From the NCBI GenBank assembly GCA_024137785.1, contig JAHRHZ010000012.1, positions 66,652,324-66,716,323 on the forward strand: DNA of 64,000 bases, given 5' to 3'. The position numbers and the translations under genes are program-made. The notes under the pieces were generated by a model. The model saw nothing but the letters and a program-made list of their open reading frames with translations, made no database searches and had not been told where the DNA came from. The stretch's first letter is position 1, and each line of letters opens with the position of its first letter. Below, piece by piece: positions 6,853-58,836 of this stretch. The stretch is from Ginglymostoma cirratum. Its lineage: Eukaryota.

Positions 6853-6969
6853 CTCGTATACTCTTCATACAGCTCGGTTCCCTTTACTTCTGTAAGGGGT
6901 TCCTGGAGAGAATCTTGCGCCATTGCCTTGCAGTTTTGAGGTGCATGCTCCTGTACTGAGTTTAAGGAA
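6853..6969 (-). CDS. PRUNE2: PRUNE2 internal exon (117 bp, phase 2-2)
   Basis: Polypyrimidine acceptor ttttctttcccctcttactttgtttttacag| and donor AG|gtcagt. It is open in the frame continuing from the giant exon: SSLNSVQEHAPQNCKAMAQDSLQEPLTEVKGTELYEEYT. Confidence 0.75.
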
Positions 6970-11143: not shown

Positions 11144-14100
11144 CTCACTTCAGTCGAATCTCCCTTCTCAATTAAAATAATCTTTTCCCTCCTTAATTCT
11201 TTTCCCGGTAAAGCAGAACATTCAGTAGCAGATGGTTTGGGATAAATATGCTCTGCCACCTTTTCACTTTCACTCAAATCTTCGTGTGAAATGTTGGCCT
11301 CCCTCACAGAGAACTGGGATGAAGTGCTCTCAGTTTCACTGTCGCTTAGCTCGTCTGTAGATACAGTTCTTGTCGAATACGTTATAACATTTATTTCTGA
11401 AGACCTATGATGCATGGCATCATAGTCAGTCTCAGATTCTTCAGTGTTATCTGCACTGGTTTCATTAGAAATGAGATTTGTTGCCTTCAGCTCTTTAATT
11501 GAATGCTCTGAACCAGATTTGCTCATTTCTTTCCTACAAGGATATTCCTCAGGTGAGGTGTCTGACAGTTCATTTAAATCTATTATTTTTCCACTCTGTT
11601 GATCTTTAGTTGGTTTCTCATCCAAATGTGCCCCCCCTTGATTTTGATCATTGTTCCCTATAAACTGGGCATCAGGGGCACTGTATGCTGAAGGTAAGCT
11701 ACCAGAAAATCTCTCAGAGTTACTCGTTTCATTTCCACTGATTCTTGGTTGAATCGCAGCTGAAGGAAGTGTTGAAAAATCATCTTCAAAATCTTTTTTT
11801 ATAATATCTGTATTCAGATTTGCGGCCAGACTTTTAGTTTGCTGGCTATTTGGCACTTCTTCACAAAGTCTTTTGCTTCCAGCTACAATTATATAGTCCA
11901 TTTCTCCTGTGTCATGGTCTTTATCAGATGTCACGCTAAAATCATTGGTGCCAAGTTCACCTGAGTTCACCTGGGTTTGGCAATTACCCACATTGTCAAC
12001 ATCTGGTGAACCGTTACCAATCTCAATACAGGAAACTGGAGAGTTGAGTGAAGAAACCAAGGAACTGTACTGGTTATCAACCCTTTGTTCCAAAAGGGGA
12101 ACACTTCTTTTGCTGCAGGGGTCTGACAATTGCTCTGCAGTTTCCACTCTTACTTCACTTCCTGCCATCTCTTTATGCCTCTCTGTTGCAATAGCACTCT
12201 CAGAAACAGAAACATGTGAAAATCCTTCAGGAACTACACTACAATCCTGGGGACTAAGGTCTTCCCAAAAGTCTGATTTATGGATACTAGATGATAAGCT
12301 ACAGGAAGTCTCGTTGCTGTTACTGCCGCTATTTGTAATTCCAAATGAATGCCACGCACTTTCTTGAACATTTTGCACCACTTGCTCTGTTTCCATATTA
12401 CTTTGGTTTGACATATCAGTGTTAGGCTGCACGACAGTACCATCTGCTGGTGGAAACATATTTCTGTCTTCTGTAACCTTCGTTGAAGTTTTCAGTGAAT
12501 CTGGTTGCCTTACAGATTCACAAGCACCATGGACAAATGCATCTTCAAATATGTCTGATTTAGTGTCTCTATTAAAACTTTGAACTTCAGGACGAATTGG
12601 CTGAGATCCCTCATCACTAATTTTGGATGTTTTCTGTCTTGTAACCAACTCATCCTTCATGATTTTGGAAGCACTGATACTTGGAGATGAAATCGTATCA
12701 TTCAAATGATTAGCCTCTGTTACTGTCTGAGAAAAATCTCTCAGCGGTTCCATATTCAAAATATTTTCTTCTGATACAGAGAAGTATTCCATCATTTCTG
12801 GATCATATATATCTGTGTCCAGACTATAGCTAGATGTAGCAGAAGTAAAATAGTCATCTGCACATCTGGATTTTGAAAAAAGGTGTTCATTTTCTCTTAT
12901 CCCATCATTTTTACTATATGAATTATTGTCTTGGTAAAGATTAGGATAATTGTCTTTTGAAATACTGCCCTGTTGCTCTTTAGTTAGCAGGAATGAATCT
13001 AAGCTTTCATCCTGTGGAGGTACAGGTGGCGTATCATGTGTTTTCTTTATACACAAAACATTGTTTTCAGCACCTGAGACTTCAAACTGCTTAGCTTCTC
13101 CCCAGGAAATGTCATTTTCACAAAGTAATGCACTATCCCCAGTAACAGGAATTTCCTCCACTGGATGCTGCAAATTTTCTTCGTGAGCTACAACGTCTCT
13201 GTCCTGTGTAAATTTATGATTTTCTAAATCATAATAACGTATTCTCTCTTGATATTTACCCTGTGAACCTGGACCTTTCATGACTGCTTCAGCAGCATCT
13301 TCTCCGAACTGAATCCAAGCATCAGGACGAACAAAAAAATGTTGCTCATCTTCTTGTACAGAATCAAACTTGGTTTGATTTAATTCTGTCAGATCTTTAT
13401 TTTTATCAAATGTTTGTTTTGCTGTAACAAAATCTTCTCCTGATTCAATGCAACCATCAGCATGTTTTGTCTCCTTCTGGTTGTTTAATTGTACTTTACA
13501 TGACTGTGCATCCACAGCAACGAAGGGCGAATGGCTTGCTTGTTGCACTAATTCATTATGTACATACTGACATTGATCATTGAGAGGAGATTCAGCCAAC
13601 TCACATGAAGCAACATTGTCTGATATTGATAGACATGACTGCTGTCCAGTTACATCCATTATATCAGGAAGTTCAGTCTTCAGTTCAGCAGGTTTTCCAT
13701 CCGACTCCATCCACATATCTGGATTTCCCAATTCTTGCTTTTCTGCCTCAACCAATTCATTCCATCTATCAGGGCTGTTTGGAGTTGAATGGCTGGAATC
13801 TAATTCATGATCATTCAAAATATCAGGATTTACAGTAGTTGAATCAAAAAACAAATGATCAGATTTAGCCCACAAATCAGGATTCGCTGAAGAAATCTGA
13901 TGTGCATCTTGGTGATAGTCATTGACAATATCAGGAGCATTTTCATCTTGTTCGACTAACTCCTGCTCAAATTCAGTACATGCATCGTTACTAGTGGGAA
14001 GCAACTTGGGAAATTCATATTTTGAGTCTATCCAAGTGTTGGGAATATCAGTGCAAGAACGGTTATACTCATCTTCTACAGGTTGGTTAGAATCAAGTGC

Positions 14101-17100
14101 ATTTGATTGCTCTTGTTCAAACCTTTTTGAGATAGCGAAATCGGTTGTTGCCTGGATAAACTCAAAGTCAGAGTCGTGAAAATTATCAGCATTCTTTACA
14201 GCTTGTAGTTTGTCTTCTTCCATTGGTCTTCTGCAGATATCAGTGCCTGCTGGATAATCTTGTGGTATTTCAGAGGCTAACAATTGGCTACCCTGTTCTT
14301 TACAATGTATATCAAGAATGCTGAGCACTGGCTGTTCTGTTTTCTGTCTAGATATTTCCCAATTTTCTTCTAGGTCAGAATAAGAAAATTCTTCACATTT
14401 GCTCTGTGAATTTGAAAATTTTTCATTCAGCTCAGAACCTTTCTGTTGTAACTGATTCCATGTCTGAGGAGCTGAAGAGGTTTGCTGGTTATCCATTTCT
14501 ACCATTTCAAAATCAGAGGATCTGGAGAATTTATAGTCTGGTAATCTCCCTTCAATTTCATAATCACGGCCTACGTGAGGCTGCCTTGCAGCGGGCTGAC
14601 TGACTTCCTGCACTTGATTGAACTGGAGTTCTTGACGTATGAATGTGGATTCATCAATATCCTTTTCAAAAACACTCCATGGATGATGTGTCCCTGTCAA
14701 ATGTTGGCTGCTCTCTTGTATATATCCGTCTTCTGTGTATGGATTTTCAGTTGCAGAATATCTATTATTCAGATCCGAATTTACCATTTTATCTAAAGCT
14801 TCTGCACTTTGTTGACTGATCTTCTCAATATGTTTGTCACTTCCCTCTAGACTTTCAAAAGGTGAATTGCTGCAATGTTCAAATTCATTCCATACAACTG
14901 AAGTATTTGGAGATGTTTGTTTGCATTCTCCTGGGTTCAATGACTCTACCATTTCAAACGCTGCCTGATTGCGACTAATTGTAGCTTGCCTTCCTTCCTG
15001 CATATATTCAGCGCTTGGAGTGGTAGTTTCAAATATTGGCTGAGTAATAGCTTGCTCTGTTTCATTCCCTTCCTGACTTGCCTGATTAATGCTGTTTATT
15101 TGCTTACTCAATAGATTAGAATTACTCAATAGTGACTTTTCAGGATCATGTAGAGCAATTTTCCATATTTCAACATTATTTTCCTGGAAACGTTCATCCC
15201 ATAAATCTGTATGTTCAAAGGTTAACTGTCTTTTCTCCTTTTCAGGACAAAACTCTAGATCATGCTCACATGTAGTCGGAGGGACATGCTTTGCCATCCT
15301 TAATTTTTCACTTTCAGAAGTTAAATTGCCGGGTTTGAGGTCAAATGTATCGAAAATTTCACCAGTCAACTGGGTTTTATTTGTAGATTCATTCCCTATA
15401 ATTGTATTTACAGCAACTGGCAAATTACTCTCCAGTTCAGAATCACTTAACGTTGTGGGCATTTGTGATGCAAAGAGTTGAGAATCTTCTATAGACTCTG
15501 CGCAGGTATCTGGGCTTTCAGTGTTTAATTGTTGGATTTTATGCTCGAAATCCTTTGAAATATCTGGAAGTTTTCCATGAGGTTGTACAACTTCATGCAC
15601 TGGTTCACTCCAAATAAACGTATTTTCTACTGCGGCCGTACACTGCTTCTGTTCGGAACCTATATGTGAACTGTCTATACCTTGCTGTTTGTCCTGTTGA
15701 ACTGGTAACGTTGTTGTGTTTAACGATTTGGGTACTATTAAATTTTTGGTTCTAAATTTGTAACAAGGGTCAAAATTATCAATACCTGACAAATTTGCAT
15801 CTGTCACAGATTTGCTCCAGTTGTTAGAAGTGTTCGAGATCAATTGAGTTTTGTCTAATTCATCACATGAATCGGCTTTAGCAGAGGTTGATTGGAAAAT
15901 GCTTGGTTCAGTTATATTCCACTGATCATCAACATTTTTCATAACTGATTGCTTAGACTGCCTATCAATTTCACTCCAGATATCACATTGGGTAACATTA
16001 GATTGACTGAATTCCTGATCAAAATCTGTCCAAAAATCAGGAGATTGCTCAAGTACATTTAGTTTATTTTGGTTTTCATTCCAGATATCTTTTGGGCTTG
16101 GCACATTCTGTTTCACACTAATTTCAAATTCTTTCTGTTCTCCCGTATGCATAGAATCTGACTGATCAGAGTCAAGAATAACAATTTCGTTCATTTTCTC
16201 GATGACATCTTCTGCAAAAATATTATGAGGCCCTTCAATCGGGGGTGAGCCATCTACAAGACTGTTCATAGGTGTTGGGGGGACATTCTTATCTTCAATT
16301 TGTGATCCAATTATATCATCAGAAAGGTTTTGAGGAAGTAAAGAAATATTAGCCACATGGGATCTAACAACTTGTTGCAGCATTTGATCTTCTCCTGACT
16401 TATCACTGGCACTTTCTTGTTTGTAAACATGAACATTCTCTGCTTTTACCAGGTCAGCTTCTGGACTGGTTTCTTCTGATATTTCTGTAGAAGGTTTAGA
16501 CCAATTACAATTTAGTGGAACGTCTTCCACAATATTTTTTTGAGGGGCAGAATCTAACTTCGACAAAAACTCTTCATTATTTCCTGTAACATCAGCATGA
16601 GTGTCAGTGCAATGTGATGGATCAAGGACAGACAAATCAAAATTATCATTCATACTGACAACCGATGCTATCTTTTCCTCTGCTAATTCATCTTCAGGTA
16701 GCGAACCAAACATATCATATCCATGTACAACACTAGAGGGTGGCACAACTGCTTCTCGTATTGGGCTTTCATCACTGAGAAAAACAGAACTTTCTTTAGA
16801 TGACCGATTGCTTCGGATAGTGGCCAATCCGCTGTCTGGACTCATTAGATCTAAATTGCCATCGCCATGGGCCTGCAATGAAGAGTTCAAATTCTGAGAA
16901 TTTTCCAATGAATTATCACCAATATATTCAGTATTCTGGGAATCTACATCAGGACCAGATAAGTCTAGAGCACCAGACGATCCTTCTGAAACTGGAGCAC
17001 TGCCATTGACAGCTTCAGTGGAAGAAGTTCTCCTGTTCATTACCATTTCTTGCTGTCGCCTATAGATACAGTCTTTGATCAGTGGGAGCATTTGCTTGCA

Positions 17101-17208
17101 TGAAACTGAAGAGCTCCCTTGCTGATAGGCTCTGATTTCCTGCAACCCATATTCTATGGGCAATAGCTGTAGACACGGACTCTGACACTCCTCTAATGTA
17201 TTGCATAT
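11144..17208 (-). CDS. PRUNE2: PRUNE2 giant exon (6065 bp): end of DHHA2 domain plus long acidic disordered region
   Basis: The acceptor gtttgacag|ATATGC gives ICNTLEECQSPCLQLLP, in frame with the 2007-aa ORF. It contains the PRUNE2 hallmarks SPDSGLATIRSNRSSKESSVFLSDESP and PPTPMNSLVDGSP. The donor is AG|gtaatt at 11144. Confidence 0.92.
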
Positions 17209-23139: not shown

Positions 23140-26100
23140 AGATAACAAGGTGTAGAGCTGGATGAACACAGCAGGCCAAGCAGCATCAGAGGAGCAGGAA
23201 AGCTGACGTTTCGGGCCTAGATCTTTCTTCAGAAATGGGGGAGGGGAAGGGGATTCTGAAATAAATAGGGAGAGAGGGGGAGGCAGATAGAAGATGGATA
23301 GGGGAGAAGATAGGTGGAGAGGAGACAGATAGGTCAAAGAGGCGAGGATGGAGCCAGTAAAGGTGAGTGTAGGTGGGGAGTTAGGGAGGGGATAGGTCAG
23401 TCCAGGGAGGATGGACAGGTCAAGGGGGCGGGATGAGGCTAGTACGTAGGAGATGGGAGTGGGGCTTGGAGGTAGGAGGAGGGGATAGGTGGGAGGAAGG
23501 ACAGGTTAGGTAGGCAGGGACAAGCTGGGCTGCTTTTGGGATGTGGTAGGGGGAGGAGAGATTTTGAAGCTTGTGAAGTCCACATTGATACCATTGGGCT
23601 GCAGGGTTCCTAAGCGGAATATGAGGTGCTGTTCCTGCAACCTTCGGGTGGCATCGTTGTGGCACTGCAGGAGGCCCAGGATGGACATGTTGTCTGAGGA
23701 ATGGGAGCGGGAGTTGAAATGGTTCGCGACTGCGAGATGCAGTTGTTTAGTGCGAACCGAGCGTAGGTGTTCCGCAAAGGGGTCCCCAAGCTTCCGCTTG
23801 GTTTCCCCAATATAGAGGAGGCCACAATGGGAACAGCAGACACAGTACACCACATTAGCAGATGTGCAGGCGAACAACTGCTTGATGTGGAAAGTCTTCT
23901 TGGGGCCTGGGATGGGGGTGAGGGGGGAGGTGTAGGGGCAGGCGTAGCACTTCCTGCAGTTGCAGGGAAAAGTGCCGGGTGTGGTGGGGTTGGAGGGGAG
24001 TGTGGAGCGGACAAGGGAGTCCCGGAGAGAATGGTCCCGCCGGAAAGCAGATAAGGGTGGGGAGGGAAAAATGTCTTTGGTGGTGGGGTCGGATTGCAGA
24101 TGGCGGAAGTGTCGGAAGATGATGTGTTGGATCCGGAGGTTGGTGGGGTGGTAGGTAAGGACGAGGGCGATTCTGTTTTGGTTGTTATCGCGGGGACGGG
24201 GTGTGAGGGATGAGTTGCGGGAAATGCAGGAGACACGGTCGAGGGCGTTCTCGACCACTGGGAGAGGGGCGGGGAGGTTGCAGTCCTCGAAAAACTAGGA
24301 CATCTGAGATATACGGGAGTGGAATGCCTCATCCTGGGAGCAGATGCGGCAGAGGTGAAGGAATTGGGAATAGGGGATGGCATTTTTGCAGGAAGGTGGG
24401 TGGGAGGAGGTGTATTCTCGGTAGCTGTGGAAGTCGGTAAGCTTGAAATGGATATCGGTTTTCAGGTGGTTGCCAAAGATGGAAAGAGAGAGGTCCAGGA
24501 AGGAGACGGAGTTATCAGAGATGGTCCAGGGGAACTTAAGGTTGGGGTGGAGGGTGTTGAATTGGATGAACTGTTCGAGCTCCGCGTGGGAGCACGAGGC
24601 GGCGCCGATACAGTCATCAATGTAGCGGAGGAAGAGGTGGGGTTTAGGGCCAGTGTAGCTACGGAAGAGGGATTGTTCCACGTAACCTACAAAGAGGCAG
24701 GCATAGCTTGGGCCCATGCAGGTACCCATGGCCACTCCCTGTCTCTGTAGGAAGTGGGAGGAATTGAAAGAGAAGTTGTTGAGGGTGAGGACGAGTTCGG
24801 CGAAGGGTGAGAGCGTCAGTGGAGGGGGACTGGTCGGGCCTGCGGGACAGGAAGAAGCGGAGGGCCTTTAGGCCATCTGCGTGGGGAATGCAGGTGTATA
24901 GGGACTGGACGTCCATGGTAAAGATGAGGTGTTGGGGACCAGTGAATTGGAAGTTTTGGAGGAGGTGGAGGGCGTCAGTGGTGTCACGGACGTAGGTAGG
25001 GAGTTCCTGGACCAAGGGGGAGAAAATGGAGTCGAGATAGGTGGAGATAAGTTCGCTGGGGCAGGAGCAGGCGGAAACAATGGGTCGACCAGGGCAGAGA
25101 TAAAAGGTACTGCAGATGCTGGAGAATCCGAGATAACAAGCATGGGGCTGGATGAACACAGCAGGTCAAGCAGCATCATAGGAGCAGGAAAACTTGACGT
25201 TTTGGGCCTAAACCCTTCATCAGAAATGGGGGAGGGGAAGAGGGTTCTGAAGTAAATAGGGAGAGAGGGGGAGGCGGATAGAGGATGGATAGAGGAGAGG
25301 ATAGGTGGAGAGGAGGCAGACAAGTCGAAGAGGCGGGGATGGAGCCAGTAAAGGTGAGTGTAGGTAGGGGGGTAGGGAAGAGATAGGTCAGTCCAGGGAG
25401 GACGGACAGGTCAAGGGGGCGGGATGATGTTAGTAGAAGGGCAGTCAGGTTTGTCGATTTTGGGAAGGAGATAGAAGCAGGCGGTGCGGGGTTGGGGAAC
25501 GATGATTTTGGATGCTGTGGGTGGGAGGTCACCTGAAATGATGAGGTTGTGGATGGTTTGGGAGATGATGGTTTGGTTGTCGGGGGTGGGGTCATGATCA
25601 AGGGGGCGGTAGGAGGTGGTGTCGGTGAGTTGGCGCCTGGCCTCGGCGCTGTAGAGGTCAGTGCGCCATACTACAACTGTGCTCCCTTGTCCGCGGGTTT
25701 TATGGTGAGGTTGGGATTGGAGCAGAGGGAGCAGAGGGCTGCACATTCTGTGAGGGAGAGGCTGGAGTGAGTAAGGGGGTGGAGAGGTTGAGGCGATTGA
25801 TGTCACGACGGCAGTTGGAGATGAAGAGGTCGAGGGAGGGTAGGAGGCCTTGGGGTGGTGTCCAGGAGGAGGGGATGTGTTGGAGGCAGAAGGGGTCAAT
25901 AGGGGGAGGGTTAGGCTCACGATTGAAGAAGTAAGCGCGGAGGCAGAGGCGATGGCGGTGAAAAAACTGTTCAACATCCAAGCGTGAGCGGTATTTGTTG
26001 ATGTGTGGGTGGTGGGGGACAAAGGTGAGCCCTTTACTGAGGGATGACTGTTCGTCCTCAGTGAGGGGGAGGTCGGGGGGGATGGTGAAGACTTGGCAGG

Positions 26101-26790
26101 GCTGGGTGCTATTGTCTCCTCTAGAGCTGCTGGCTGTGGAGGCCGTGGGTGGAGCGATGTCGGCGTTGGCAGTGGGCGAGTTGTGTCAGCGTCGGCGGTG
26201 GGCGGAGCAGGGTAGGCTGCGGCAGCAGCGGTGTCTGCAGGTGCATCCTCAGTGTCTGTGGTGTTGCCCTCCTCGGAAATGGAGGCAGTGGCATCAGCAG
26301 TGGTGTCGATGGCATTCGCTGTCCCGGAAGTGGTGTACCCGGCGGCAGCGGATGTGACGTCATCCGTGGGTGCTCCGAAAGTGGCCTCATGGCTGATGGC
26401 AGCGGGCACATTGTGGCGAAGGTCCTGGGTAGGGTTGGGGATTTGGGGGGTGGAGGAGGCCCGTTTTGGGTGGCAGGCACCAGTAAGTTTACTGTACTTA
26501 CGGTTTTTAGTGTCCAATAAAGCTGAGTAGAATTGAGAGTTCAGGTTGTGGATCCTACAAAGAATAAAAAACAGGAGAGGTCCTTGCAGGTCTGGAAGAG
26601 GGAGGCTCTGAGCTGGGGTAGGCTTGACTGTAGCGCCAGGAGATGCCGGTGCATTGCTGTGAGTGCGTGTTTCAGGAGTCGCAGTGAGAAACGTTTTTGA
26701 AGGATCTCAATGTTCTGAATGTAGACATTGTCGCAGTTGGGGCCAAATTGGGAAGGCCTAAATGTGGACTGTAGTCCATTGGGGATGATA
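23140..26790 (-). mobile_element. Long Penelope-like retroelement (RT + GIY-YIG), frameshifted and 5'-truncated
   Basis: RT motifs IKPADKG-like, MDVQSLYTCIPH, AMGTCMGPSYACLF and FLRYIDDC are present. The GIY-YIG region reads CTSANVVYCVCCSHCGLLYIGETKR..EH..VANHFN..EQHLIFRLGTLQPNGIN. The 3' pLTR is at 23140-23560. Confidence 0.92.
25098..25437 (-). mobile_element. Solo Penelope pLTR nested in the RT ORF of the 23140-26790 element
   Basis: Near-identical to 56028-56357. Flanked by AGGGCAG at 25091-25097 and 25438-25444, and it interrupts the KPDCP|GRPIVS motif. Confidence 0.85.
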
Positions 26791-31383: not shown

Positions 31384-31542
31384 TCTGTTGCATAGCTCAT
31401 CATTGTCAGTGTAGATGGCGACTTGTCGAATTGCTTCGCCACCTTCATTTAGGAAGTAAGTCATCAAGACAAGAATGTCATAACCAAGCCTTCCAGTAAA
31501 TACTTTTAAATCGTCAACAATATTTGGACGAGATAGAAAGGC
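31384..31542 (-). CDS. PRUNE2: PRUNE2 exon encoding part of the DHHA2 domain (159 bp, phase 0-0)
   Basis: Splice sites are tttttgtgttgcag|GCC...AACAGA|gtaagt. The exon encodes AFLSRPNIVDDLKVFTGRLGYDILVLMTYFLNEGGEAIRQVAIYTDNDELCNR and joins in frame to ICNTLEECQ of the giant exon, matching Prune-family DHHA2. Confidence 0.93.
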
Positions 31543-38850: not shown

Positions 38851-39399
38851 GAGATAGCAGGAACTGCAGATGCTGGAGAATCTGAGATAACAAGGNNNNN
38901 NNNNNNNNNNNNNNNNNNNNNNNNNNNNNNNNNNNNNNNNNNNNNNNNNNNNNNNNNNNNNNNNNNNNNNNNNNNNNNNNNNNNNNNNNNNNNNNNNNNN
39001 NNNNNNNNNNNNNNNNNNNNNNNNNNNNNNNNNNNNNNNNNNNNNNNNNNNNNNNNNNNNNNNNNNNNNNNNNNNNNNNNNNNNNNNNNNNNNNNNNNNN
39101 NNNNNNNNNNNNNNNNNNNNNNNNNNNNNNNNNNNNNNNNNNNNNNNNNNNNNNNNNNNNNNNNNNNNNNNNNNNNNNNNNNNNNNNNNNNNNNNNNNNN
39201 NNNNNNNNNNNNNNNNNNNNNNNNNNNNNNNNNNNNNNNNNNNNNNNNNNNNNNNNNNNNNNNNNNNNNNNNNNNNNNNNNNNNNNNNNNNNNNNGACCC
39301 TTCTTCTGAAGAAGGGTCTAGGCCCGAAACGTCAGCCTTCCTGCTCCTCTGATGCTGCTTGGCCTGCTGTGTTCATCCAGCTCCACACCTTGTTATCTC
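38851..39399. mobile_element. Family-A foldback Penelope element with 13-bp TSD, spanning an assembly gap (38896-39295)
   Basis: The left end GAGATAGCAGGAACTGCAGATGCTGGAGAATCTGAGATAACAAGG is inverted to the right end CCTTGTTATCTC. AAGGGAAAATTCA occurs at 38838-38850 and 39400-39412. Confidence 0.85.
39306..39333 (+). ncRNA. Minimal hammerhead ribozyme motif
   Basis: CTGAAGA-AGGGTCTAGGCCC-GAAA-CGTC. Confidence 0.6.
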
Positions 39400-56154: not shown

Positions 56155-58433
56155 AAATGGGGGAGGGGAAGAGGGTTCTGAAATAAATAGGGAGAGAGGG
56201 GGAGGCGGATAGAGGAGAGGATAGGTGGAGAGGAGGCAGACAAGTCGAAGAGGCGGGGATGGAGCCAGTAAAGGTGAGTGTAGGTAGGGGTGTAAGGAAG
56301 AGATAGGTCAGTCCAGGGAGGACGGACAGGTCAAGGGGGCGGGATGATGTTAGTAGATAGGAGATGGGGGTGTGGCTTGAGGTGAGGGGAAAAACAGGTT
56401 AGGGAGGTGGAGATGAGCTGGGCTGACGCATAACTCCGCCCACAGCCAACGCCGACAACGCTCCGCCCACTGCCTCCACAGCCAGCAGCTCCAGAGGAGA
56501 CAGCAACACTGAGCCCTGCCGAGTCTTCACCATCCCCCCAGACCTCCCCCTTACTGAGGACGAACGGTCAGTCCTCAGTAAAGGGCTCACCTTTGTCCCC
56601 CTCCACCCACATGTCAACGAATACCGCTCACGCTTGGATATTGAGCAGTTTTTCTGCCGCCTCCACCTCCATGCTTACTTCTCCAACCGCGAATCTAACC
56701 CTTCCTCTACTGACCCCTTCTCCCGCCTCCGACACAAGCCCTCCTCCTGGACACCACCCCAAGGCCTCCTACCCTCCCTTGACCTCTTCATCTCCAACTG
56801 CCGTCGTGACATCAATCGCCTCAACCTCTCTACCCCTCTCAAACACTCCAACCTCTCCCCCGCAGAATGTGCAGCCCTCCACTCCCTCCGCTCCAATCCC
56901 AACCTCACCATAAAACCCGCGGACAAGGAAGGGGCAGTCGTAGTATGGCGCACTGACCTCTACATTGCTGAGGCCAGGCGCCAACTCTCTGACACCTCCT
57001 CCTACCGCCCCCTAGATCATGACCCCACCCCTGAGCACCAAACCATCATCTCCCAAACCATCCACAACCTCATCACCTCAGGTGACCTCCCACCCACCGC
57101 CTCCAACCTCATCGTTCCCCAACCCCGCACCGCCCGCTTCTTCTCCCCAAAATCCACAAACCTGAATGCCCTGGTCGACCCATTGTCTCTGCCTGCTCCT
57201 GCCCCACCGAACTCATCTCCACCTACCTAGACTCCATTTTCACCCCCTTGGTCCAGGAACTCCCTACCTATGTCCATGACACTACCCACGCCCTCCACCT
57301 CCACCTCCTCCAGAACTTCCAATTTCCCGGTCCCCAACACCTCATTTTTACTATGGATGGCCAGTCCCTATACACCTGCATTCCCCACGCAGATGGCCTA
57401 AAGGCCCTCCGGTTCTTCCTGTCCCGCAGAACGGACCAATCCCCCTCCACCGACACCCTCATCCGCCTAGCCGAACTCGTCCTCACCCTCAACAACTTTT
57501 CTTTCAATTCCTCCCACTTCCTACAGACAAAGGGGGTGGCCATGGGTACCCGCATGGGCCCAAGCTATGCCTGCCTCTTTGTAGGTTACGTGGAACAATC
57601 CCTCTTCCGTACCTACACTGGCCCTAAACCCCACCTCTTCCTCCGTTACATTGATGACTGCATCGGCGCCGCCACGTGCTCCCACGAGGAGCTCGAACAG
57701 TTCATCCAATTCACCAACACCTTCCACCGCAACCTGAAGTTCACCTGGACCATCTCTAACACTTCTCTCTCCTTCCTGGACCTCTCTGTCTCCATCTCGG
57801 GCAACCACCTAGAGACAGATGTCCATTTCAAGCACACTGACTCCCACAGCTACCTGGAATACACCTCCTCCCACCCACCCTCCTGCAAAAATGCCATCCC
57901 CTATTCCCAATTCCTTCGCCTCCGCCGCATCTGCTCCCAGGATGAGACATTCCACTCCCGCACATCTCAAATGTCCTCATTCTTCAAGGACCGCAACTTC
58001 CCCCCCACAGTGGCCGCGAACGCCCTCGACCGTGTCTCCCGCATTTCCCGGAACACATCCCTCACGCCCCGCCGCCGCAACAATAACCAAAAAAAAATCC
58101 CCCTCGTCCTCACATACCACCCCACCAACCTCCGGATCCAACGCATCATCCTCCGACACTTCCGCCATCTGCAATCAGACCCCACCATCAAAGACATTTT
58201 TCCCTCCCCACCCTTGTCTGCCTTCCGGAGGGACCACTCTCTCCGCGACTCCCTTGTCCGCTCCACACTCCCCTCCAGCCCCACCACACCCGGCACTTTT
58301 CCCTGTAACCGCAGGAAGTGCTACACCTGCCCCCACACCTCCTCCCTCACCCCAATCCCAGGCCCCAAGAAGACTTTCCACATCAGGCAGATGTTCACCT
58401 GCACATCTGCCAATGTGGTATACTGCATCCGCT

Positions 58434-58533
58434 NNNNNNNNNNNNNNNNNNNNNNNNNNNNNNNNNNNNNNNNNNNNNNNNNNNNNNNNNNNNNNNNNNN
58501 NNNNNNNNNNNNNNNNNNNNNNNNNNNNNNNNN
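58434..58533. other. Assembly gap (100 N) inside the PLE endonuclease region
   Basis: Run of Ns. Confidence 1.
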
Positions 58534-58836
58534 CCCCCAACCGCATCCCAAAACCAGCCCAGCTCATCTCCACCTCCCTAACCTGTTTTTCCTCTCACCA
58601 CAAGCCACACCCCCATCTCCTATCTACTAACATCATCCCGCCCCCTTGACCTGAGCGTCCTCCCTGGACTGACCTATCTCTTCCTTACACCCCTACCTAC
58701 ACTCACCTTTACTGGCTCCATCCCCGCCTCTTCGACTTGTCTGCCTCCTCTCCACCTATCCTCTCCTCTATCCATCCTCTATCCGCCTCCCCCTCTCTCC
58801 CTATTTATTTCAGAACCCTCTTCCCCTCCCCCATTT

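Follow-up and report, generated by a model that had tools for sequence, protein, structure and literature searches.

A cryptic 18-residue repeat in the giant exon of shark PRUNE2 and the codon-level trace of its ancient 54-bp amplification

Introduction

The long disordered regions of several proteins carry degenerate arrays of binding motifs that vary in copy number and have known partners, as in the BRC repeats of BRCA2, the MELT repeats of KNL1 and the LFa repeats of FAM21. Here we describe a degenerate array of 18-amino acid (aa) units within the giant internal exon of PRUNE2, in a 64,000-nucleotide stretch of the Ginglymostoma cirratum genome (contig JAHRHZ010000012.1; this whole stretch is termed the window, and coordinates count from its first nucleotide), which is likened to those three systems by description alone. 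PRUNE2, or BMCC1, is tied to neuroblastoma prognosis and to prostate cancer, and to our knowledge its middle region of approximately 2,000 aa has been regarded as featureless.

The accessory proteins of the clathrin coat (Eps15, epsin and AP180, with WxxF in NECAP) possess motif domains that bind the ears of AP-2 by avidity (PMC1540706, PMC5694535, PMC6706699). Like those domains, the PRUNE2 array is acidic, is predicted to be unstructured and holds many aromatic motifs, and PRUNE2 binds AP-2 (PMC3765211). It differs in that most of its units match none of DP[FW], FXDXF and the strict WXX[FW]X[DE], in that its 18-aa unit stems from duplication and has a W-N head, and in that PRUNE2 is dispensable for transferrin uptake (PMC3765211).

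Giant ankyrin-B, with its 15 modules of 12 aa and its BG-box, offers a second likeness: imperfect, disordered tandem repeats in a vertebrate giant exon, binding by avidity (proposed below for PRUNE2), lineage-specific copy number and an adjoining short conserved element (PMC7401806). In ankyrin-B the repeats are readily visible, basic and microtubule-binding, and their expansion took place in mammals (PMC7401806), whereas the PRUNE2 units are acidic, only some 14% identical and older than the jawed-vertebrate split; the two systems are compared by description only. Long internal exons are known to gain disordered sequence via repeat expansion, and unrecognised repeats are expected to explain more of it (PMC12457776). 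That work concerns recent indels, with PRUNE2 unmentioned in its main text, whereas the PRUNE2 case is very old, cryptic and marked by a synonymous-codon trace. As the general principle of repeat-driven exon growth is known, PRUNE2 is a new case and not a new kind of system.

The repeat itself is apparently undescribed. A first-pass annotation, made from the letters of the window, had known of no description for PRUNE2, and we likewise found none in the open literature (a scope that excludes subscription papers); in the accessible text, the word 'repeat' is absent from PMC3765211 and PMC3327665 and appears a single time in PMC2655648. The accessible text of PMC13370473 names PRUNE2 only for an IPEY peptide that binds the FYN SH2 domain.

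Results

Statistical evidence for an 18-residue period

The gene in the window is PRUNE2, and the repeat is contained in an open reading frame (ORF) of 2,023 aa, read stop-to-stop on the minus strand. Periodicity was assessed by BLOSUM autocorrelation over 78 lags against 2000 shuffles, with family-wise p values. Between aa 371 and 1304 the autocorrelation peaked at lag 18 (z=4.18, family-wise p=0.0005), as the first-pass annotation had predicted against shuffled sequence, and lag 18 persisted when the best-preserved run of eight units was removed (z=3.61, p=0.02). It was absent from the N-terminal 370 aa (z=-0.56) and from the sequence C-terminal of that run (z=-0.73), and over the whole ORF alone it was non-significant once corrected (z=2.39, p=0.52). 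A profile of 14 elasmobranch sequences gave z=7.0 at lag 18 and z=4.9 at lag 36, with a weak signal over aa 700-1049 (z=2.1) and no lag 18 over aa 865-1080 or in the C-terminal 700 aa.

A matrix built from the eight units of the best-preserved run only found 12 matches scoring more than 4 bits in aa 341-1040, where shuffled sequence gave 0.1, and 0 matches in aa 1400-2022; its score track had z=10.8 at lag 18. An iterated leave-one-out profile returned 43 hits, 40 of them within 13279-16098, and the three outside the array (aa 55, 309 and 1696) were excluded from the unit count. Outside the best-preserved run there were 32 units, whereas 30 shuffled runs gave 0.8 on average and never more than 3, and 27 of the 42 gaps between profile hits were multiples of 18 +/-1. 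The 18-aa repeat is confirmed as real and beyond chance.

Units, spacing and consensus

The giant exon and the parts of the array are as follows, all on the minus strand.

11144 to 17208 (-): giant internal coding exon of PRUNE2, 6,065 bp (ORF, splice sites, and tblastn of Stegostoma aa 317-2333 at 90%)
13279 to 16098 (-): degenerate 18-aa (54-bp) array with 40 recognisable units (autocorrelation, profiles, codon tests)
15730 to 16098 (-): block A, six units including a W-x-x-F-D unit at 16047-15997 (profile); within the interval matching the human AP-2-binding fragment, placed approximately by anchor offset
14980 to 15627 (-): block B, 12 units, with runs spaced at 18 aa and some shortened steps of 12-14 aa (profile; local lag-18 z up to 4.2 in the elasmobranch profile; the family-wise p of the BLOSUM autocorrelation for this block was discarded, the segment being shorter than the longest lag)
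14095 to 14907 (-): block C and a decayed stretch, 11 units, with W-x-x-F-E units at 14907 and 14694; period weakest at about 14600-14100
13621 to 14049 (-): best-preserved run, eight units, the core of the first-pass annotation (z=6.2 at lag 36 and 5.2 at lag 18; DNA repeat pairs 54 and 108 bp apart)
13726 to 13941 (-): core of four units, PD(I)..PDLW..PDIL..SPD, whose register is conserved between sharks and tetrapods
13279 to 13467 (-): three trailing units, the last being P-D-A-W (profiles)

Every unit quoted in the first-pass annotation was recovered in place and at the spacing given, in one minus-strand frame. Those of the best-preserved run start at 14046, 13992, 13938, 13884, 13830, 13776, 13725 and 13671 (spacings of 18, 18, 18, 18, 18, 17 and 18 aa), and in this run lag 36 scores at least equal to lag 18. 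The series DIW/DFW/DIW/DQW is spaced at 17, 18 and 19, FIW/DIS/DTC/TTL at 18, 18 and 18, and VVW/EGS/DKM/YTE/HPW/ELQ at 17, 18, 18, 18 and 18; the EGS unit was missed by the leave-one-out profile. The unit consensus is x-N-P-D-(I/L/V)-W-N-E-S-E-Q-E-x-x-Q-S-x-x. The earlier, shorter consensus of an N/S-P-D head with W and acidic residues was correct but incomplete, as N7, S9, Q11, E12, Q15 and S16 are also preferred.

Mean pairwise identity between units is 14% (6.7% by chance), W is kept in most species in 19 of the 40 units, and the region is acidic, with a net charge of -0.11 per residue. The array spans 940 aa, or 46% of the exon, and 75% of this span (37% of the exon) lies in recognisable units; the C-terminal third of the exon has none. 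In the proposal that the array builds much of the giant exon, 'much' stands for this span, about half of the exon.

Descent of the units from a 54-bp sequence

We are close to certain that a single 54-bp unit, amplified in tandem and in frame before cartilaginous and bony fishes diverged, gave rise to the N-central half of the giant exon. The codon tests bearing on this rest on the DNA of one genome, in which the units were put in register on protein evidence. In register, the same codon was used by 964 same-residue pairs, compared with 845.9 +/- 27.6 when the residue and the next base were fixed (z=4.3). Synonymous sharing gave z=3.2 without Ser, Leu and Arg, z=3.2 in the units outside the best-preserved run alone, and z=0.2 in control pseudo-units. 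Where two units both had serine at a given position, the codon family was the same in 151 of 182 pairs (94.5 expected), with TCN at position 9 (12/12) and position 16 (10/10) and AGY at position 7 (6/6). Such sharing of synonymous codons and serine families in register argues for common descent of the units and not for convergence. At position 9, 27 of the 40 codons are no more than one base from TCT (7.6 expected), and the W-x-x-F variant is therefore one substitution from the common form.

At the level of DNA the units are strongly eroded, with pairwise identities of 37-43% by codon position against a background of 26-30%. Tandem Repeats Finder (TRF) reported no array in the repeat region of the exon, and a direct repeat search yielded nothing beyond short pairs, of which two had separations of 54 and 108 bp. 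A young coding minisatellite was ruled out by the lack of a TRF array and the low DNA identity between units. Neighbouring units were not more similar than distant units (p=0.97), and the absence of a similarity gradient leaves the order of duplication unreadable. The first-pass proposal of an ancient 54-bp amplification is supported by the synonymous and serine codons and by orthologous units in chimaera and tetrapods, and it explains about half of the exon. On this account the unit was copied some 40 times in frame, and the copies then diverged to their present identity.

Age and fate of the array across vertebrates

The comparison covered chondrichthyans and non-human tetrapods. Relatives were taken from the 120 matches listed among 397, and because these are mostly birds the tetrapod counts are not independent. 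A lag scan analysed 119 sequences, the anchor being absent from two of 121, and the region is incomplete in two of the chimaera models, where a young repeat predominates. A candidate search among proteins longer than 3,540 aa gave two matches and no named fish.

Scored in other vertebrates, as the first-pass annotation had suggested, the unit profile found units in elasmobranchs, chimaera and tetrapods. In all 15 elasmobranch sequences the strongest period was lag 18 (z 3.6-7.2), as it was in two of four chimaera models; a chimaera outside the training set gave z=9.0 at lag 18 and 32 hits against 1.9. Across all 119 sequences lag 18 was top in 51, with z>3 in 22, and the corresponding counts for tetrapods were 34 and 5 of 100; in a downstream control region it was top in 0 of 118. 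Tetrapod clade profiles showed an excess of unit matches with z no higher than 2.6 at lag 18. Tetrapod W sites matched the shark profile also at W+2 to W+11 (p<=0.002 in 5/5 clades), best in the true register, and W-W distances of 17-19 were enriched in only one of five clade profiles. Since orthologous units occur in chimaera and tetrapods, the array is older than the split of cartilaginous and bony fishes. This split is dated to roughly 420-450 million years ago.

From the start of the array to the four-unit core, the median distance is 797 aa in elasmobranchs (13 of 13) and 1,421 aa in tetrapods (88 of 102). The 18-aa register is retained in sharks, rays and chimaera; in tetrapods a stretch about twice as long holds dispersed units, except in the four-unit core. 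This core keeps its 18/19/18 spacing from shark to rodent, with its pattern in 103 of 120 proteins; in the other 17 the strict pattern was missed, amongst them all four chimaera models and several amphibians. No other part of aa ~420-1840 can be aligned with most tetrapods (within the core, aa 1081-1120 align in about 85 of 102). The tetrapod counterpart of 13726-13941 has gained a conserved His-Cys and a later Cys-(His/Gln), absent in sharks, and these residues are a possible metal site.

Younger repeats have arisen within the same exon. In the caecilian Geotrypetes seraphini, PRUNE2 aa ~1260-2440 form a young array of 15 copies of an approximately 80-aa unit with one Trp unit each (up to 87% identity at lag 80). 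As one unit was here re-amplified at 80-aa spacing, regular spacing is mostly a relic of origin. Callorhinchus milii carries a separate young, acidic and Trp-free repeat of approximately 1,000 aa (aa ~1430-2490, in the C-terminal half of the region), with period 10/20/40 and a higher order of 76. The exon still grows by tandem amplification. A 109-aa near-exact duplication near aa 2100 of Calidris pugnax PRUNE2 may be an artefact of assembly or gene model, and two lizard proteins show weak internal repeats of 122-125 aa near aa 2100-2300.

Predicted structure and motif content

An AlphaFold2 model of the core had a predicted local distance difference test score of 55.7, a predicted template modelling score of 0.11, no residue at or above 70 and no secondary structure, from a shallow alignment of 27 sequences; on this result, with that alignment, a folded solenoid repeat is not supported. 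A search for the unit in unrelated proteins covered Pfam (0 families for the repeat), the PDB sequences (0 hits at E<=10) and the ESM Atlas, where two of two queries gave no usable match, a result that shows neither absence nor novelty. These results strongly imply that the DHH and BCH domains are joined by an acidic tether that lacks a stable fold.

Each of the 15 chondrichthyans and 100 tetrapods shows an enrichment of D-x-W, by 4- to 7-fold; in the latter it occurs 10.0 times per protein (2.5 expected; 100/100), and D-x-W-[NSTD] occurs 6.76 times (0.84 expected, 8-fold; 100/100). In-register P and D residues are more conserved than other P and D residues (P 0.80 vs 0.69; D 0.85 vs 0.71). 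An acidic region predicted to be unfolded, enriched in D-x-W and with conserved P and D residues has the anatomy of a multivalent linear-motif region.

W-x-x-[FW]-[DE] occurs 3.47 times per chondrichthyan protein (0.20 expected; 15/15) and 1.66 times per tetrapod protein (0.27 expected; 93/100). DP[FW] is enriched 3-fold in tetrapods (1.37 vs 0.43; 72/100), and FxDxF was present, in two copies, only in the window protein amongst those compared. Patterns for LC3-interacting regions (LIR), kinesin light chain (KLC) W-acidic motifs, the W-box, the clathrin-box, the gamma-ear and dileucine motifs showed no enrichment in sharks. Outside the array, a W-x-x-F site at 12340-12360 (-) is kept across elasmobranchs.

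Gene identity, exon map and neighbouring features

The assignment of the gene to PRUNE2 in the first-pass annotation was borne out by sequence identity, by the domains of relatives and by the flanking exons mapped in the window. With ORF aa 1040-1310 as query, 12 of 631 candidate proteins matched, all of them PRUNE2 of sharks or rays; the best matches were the Rhincodon and Stegostoma proteins, 94% identical in the core region. Both contain DHH and DHHA2 domains, and that of Stegostoma also BNIP2 and CRAL_TRIO_2. The Stegostoma protein mapped by tblastn to three exons in the window, and the bounds of the giant exon follow from splice sites (AG acceptor before 17208, GT donor after 11144). Its human counterpart is exon 8, of 6,598 bp (PMC2655648). 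All domains of the PRUNE2/BMCC1 architecture (DHH and DHHA2 at the N-terminus, a giant exon, BNIP2 and BCH at the C-terminus) are present in the closest full-length relative; of the exons, the giant one and its two neighbours map in the window, and the BCH exons lie outside it.

31384 to 31542 (-): upstream exon, 159 bp, encoding part of the DHHA2 domain (tblastn, splice sites)
6853 to 6969 (-): small downstream exon that precedes the BNIP2/BCH exons (tblastn; 3' end placed from GT)

Two non-repeat stretches of the giant exon, 16170-16290 and 16620-17208 (-), are strongly conserved to tetrapods and have no Pfam match; exon aa 1-196 align in 102 of 102 tetrapod proteins, and a PTPMNS block in most. 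Retroelement copies, which we take to be Penelope-like, lie at 57086-58630 (+) and ~23500-26700 (-), the latter in pieces across frames, with weak matches to reverse transcriptase (E=1.9e-6) and GIY-YIG (E=0.005), both below Pfam cut-offs. Runs of N (assembly gaps) occur in introns at ~38890-39300 and ~58430-58530, and Rfam gave 0 matches within the window.

Discussion

Taken as a whole, an explanation in which the exon was built from a 54-bp unit and its copies serve as trafficking motifs appears moderately probable. For the functional part, that the array is a multivalent Trp-motif domain for trafficking adaptors, our support is tentative. Each unit would act as a weak linear motif, its D-(hydrophobic)-W-N head inserting the Trp into a pocket of a trafficking hub, and the array would act by avidity, as do the motif domains of clathrin-coat accessory proteins. 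Some copies may have been specialised by single-base changes, with W-x-x-F-[DE] arising where TCT (Ser) at unit position 9 became TTT (Phe), and DPW gained in tetrapods. Human PRUNE2 aa 575-904 pulls down AP-2 and was reported to have no identifiable motif or domain (PMC3765211), and WxxF or DP[FW] occurs in the matching interval in 9 of 9 proteins, an interval placed approximately by anchor offset without the human sequence. Also in favour, an NPF peptide of human PRUNE2 binds the EPS15 EH domain in phage display (PMC8769072 supplement). The W-x-x-F-[DE] and DPW copies of the first block are candidates for the AP-2 site of human PRUNE2, and AP-2 binding would be restricted to a few specialised units. 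The number of motifs may outweigh their spacing, except in the four-unit core, of which the partner is probably a different protein. The first-pass annotation had envisaged a regularly spaced binding-site polymer; the Trp motif is indeed kept and enriched in tetrapods and regular spacing holds in the four-unit core, but elsewhere spacing fails, with W-W distances of 17-19 unenriched in four of five tetrapod clades and a caecilian spacing of 80 aa. We consider it rather doubtful that the P-D-(hydrophobic)-W-N head is an undescribed linear-motif class, with the 18/19/18 core as a spacing-reading dock for a repeated or oligomeric trafficking partner and the copies turned by point substitutions into sites of AP-2 and other types.

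Several observations weigh against the explanation of an array built from a 54-bp unit that serves as trafficking motifs. Unregistered DNA at lag 54 carries no signal beyond that of the protein (synonymous shuffles, p=0.066), its z of 4.8 being relative to codon shuffles. The loose W-x-x-[FW]-[DE] pattern was picked after viewing the sequences; the published AP-2 alpha-ear motif, WXX[FW]X[DE] (PMC5694535), is near chance in its strict form (0.33 vs 0.13, in 4/15 chondrichthyans; 0.34 vs 0.25, in 30/100 tetrapods), sharks show no enrichment of DP[FW] (0.40 vs 0.31), and W..F is found in only 4 of 40 units, with W itself kept in under half. Amongst elasmobranchs the array as a whole and the C-terminal part without repeats are equally conserved (0.72 vs 0.72). 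Human fragments 1-2 and 4-10 pulled down nothing specific (PMC3765211), and these must cover most of the units and the core; AP-2 is moreover dispensable for localisation, and transferrin uptake is unchanged by knockdown (PMC3765211). Human exon 8 has a ratio of nonsynonymous to synonymous substitution (dN/dS) of 1.38 relative to chimpanzee (PMC2655648). In the phage-display table of PMC8769072, nine PRUNE2 rows are given, for EPS15 EH, LC3A/B, MDM2, PEX14 and TLN1; none is for AP2B1, CLTC or KLC1, and the alpha ear is not amongst the baits shown. The accessible text of PMC13370473 names PRUNE2 only for an IPEY peptide that binds the FYN SH2 domain.

Other explanations part company with ours over origin or over function. 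That the period arose without duplication, through selection for spaced motifs or as a five-turn helical repeat, would fit neighbouring units that are no more alike than distant ones and an exon free of TRF arrays, but in-register synonymous and serine-family sharing is unexpected under protein-level convergence and largely refutes it, and no helix is predicted; we find it hardly credible. Granting the shared origin, the array might be mainly a length-giving disordered spacer, in which the Trp heads would persist through the slow substitution of Trp and no more than one or two sites would be important. We judge this unlikely, though it draws on the equal conservation of repeat and non-repeat parts, the 21 of 40 units without a majority W, the lack of specific binding by most human fragments (PMC3765211), the fast evolution of the exon (PMC2655648), and the unrelated W-free acidic repeat amplified by chimaera in the same exon. 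A spacer does not account readily for D-x-W-[NSTD] being 8-fold enriched in every tetrapod examined despite decayed spacing, for in-register P and D above background conservation, or for a four-unit core that survives between unalignable flanks.

That core is the centre of another account, in which the four PD-hydrophobic units are the functional element, folding on a repeated or oligomeric partner that reads the 18-19 aa spacing, and the other units are decayed copies. The retention of the spacing and of the P-D heads from shark to rodent, the strong lag 36 in the core and the His/Cys residues added by tetrapods all speak for it; no fold was predicted for the core alone from its shallow alignment, nothing specific was pulled down, in one cell line, by the human fragment that contains it (PMC3765211), and the strict pattern is missing from the chimaera models and several amphibians. 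We hold it to be somewhat improbable, and it is compatible with our preferred explanation, as both can hold. An array of LIR motifs binding LC3/GABARAP, or of KLC W-acidic motifs, is suggested by acidic units with Trp and by a human PRUNE2 peptide near aa 2720 that binds LC3A/B but lies outside the array (PMC8769072 supplement). It is very unlikely: in sharks, W-based LIR matches are about as frequent as chance predicts (e.g. 5 vs 3.7 and 2 vs 4.4), [LM]xW[DE] occurs 0 times in 7/7 chondrichthyans and once each in 2/7 tetrapods, and W[DE] is unenriched. The LIR pattern ([DEST]x0-2[W]xx[LIV]) and the KLC expressions agree with published consensus patterns.

The repeat supplies a map of the middle of PRUNE2, with approximately 40 units in sharks, WxxF and DPW candidates in the AP-2-binding fragment and one deeply conserved four-unit element, and it makes the AP-2 site and the function of this region directly testable. 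It is also a clean case of a giant exon that was built by tandem amplification, escapes repeat finders and is still traceable in silent codon positions, and the in-register silent-codon test is applicable to other giant exons. If the P-D-(hydrophobic)-W-N head is indeed a motif class of its own with a spacing-reading core, shark PRUNE2 would preserve the ancestral register of the motif array, in which the origin of a giant vertebrate exon and of its binding sites from a single 54-bp seed could still be read.

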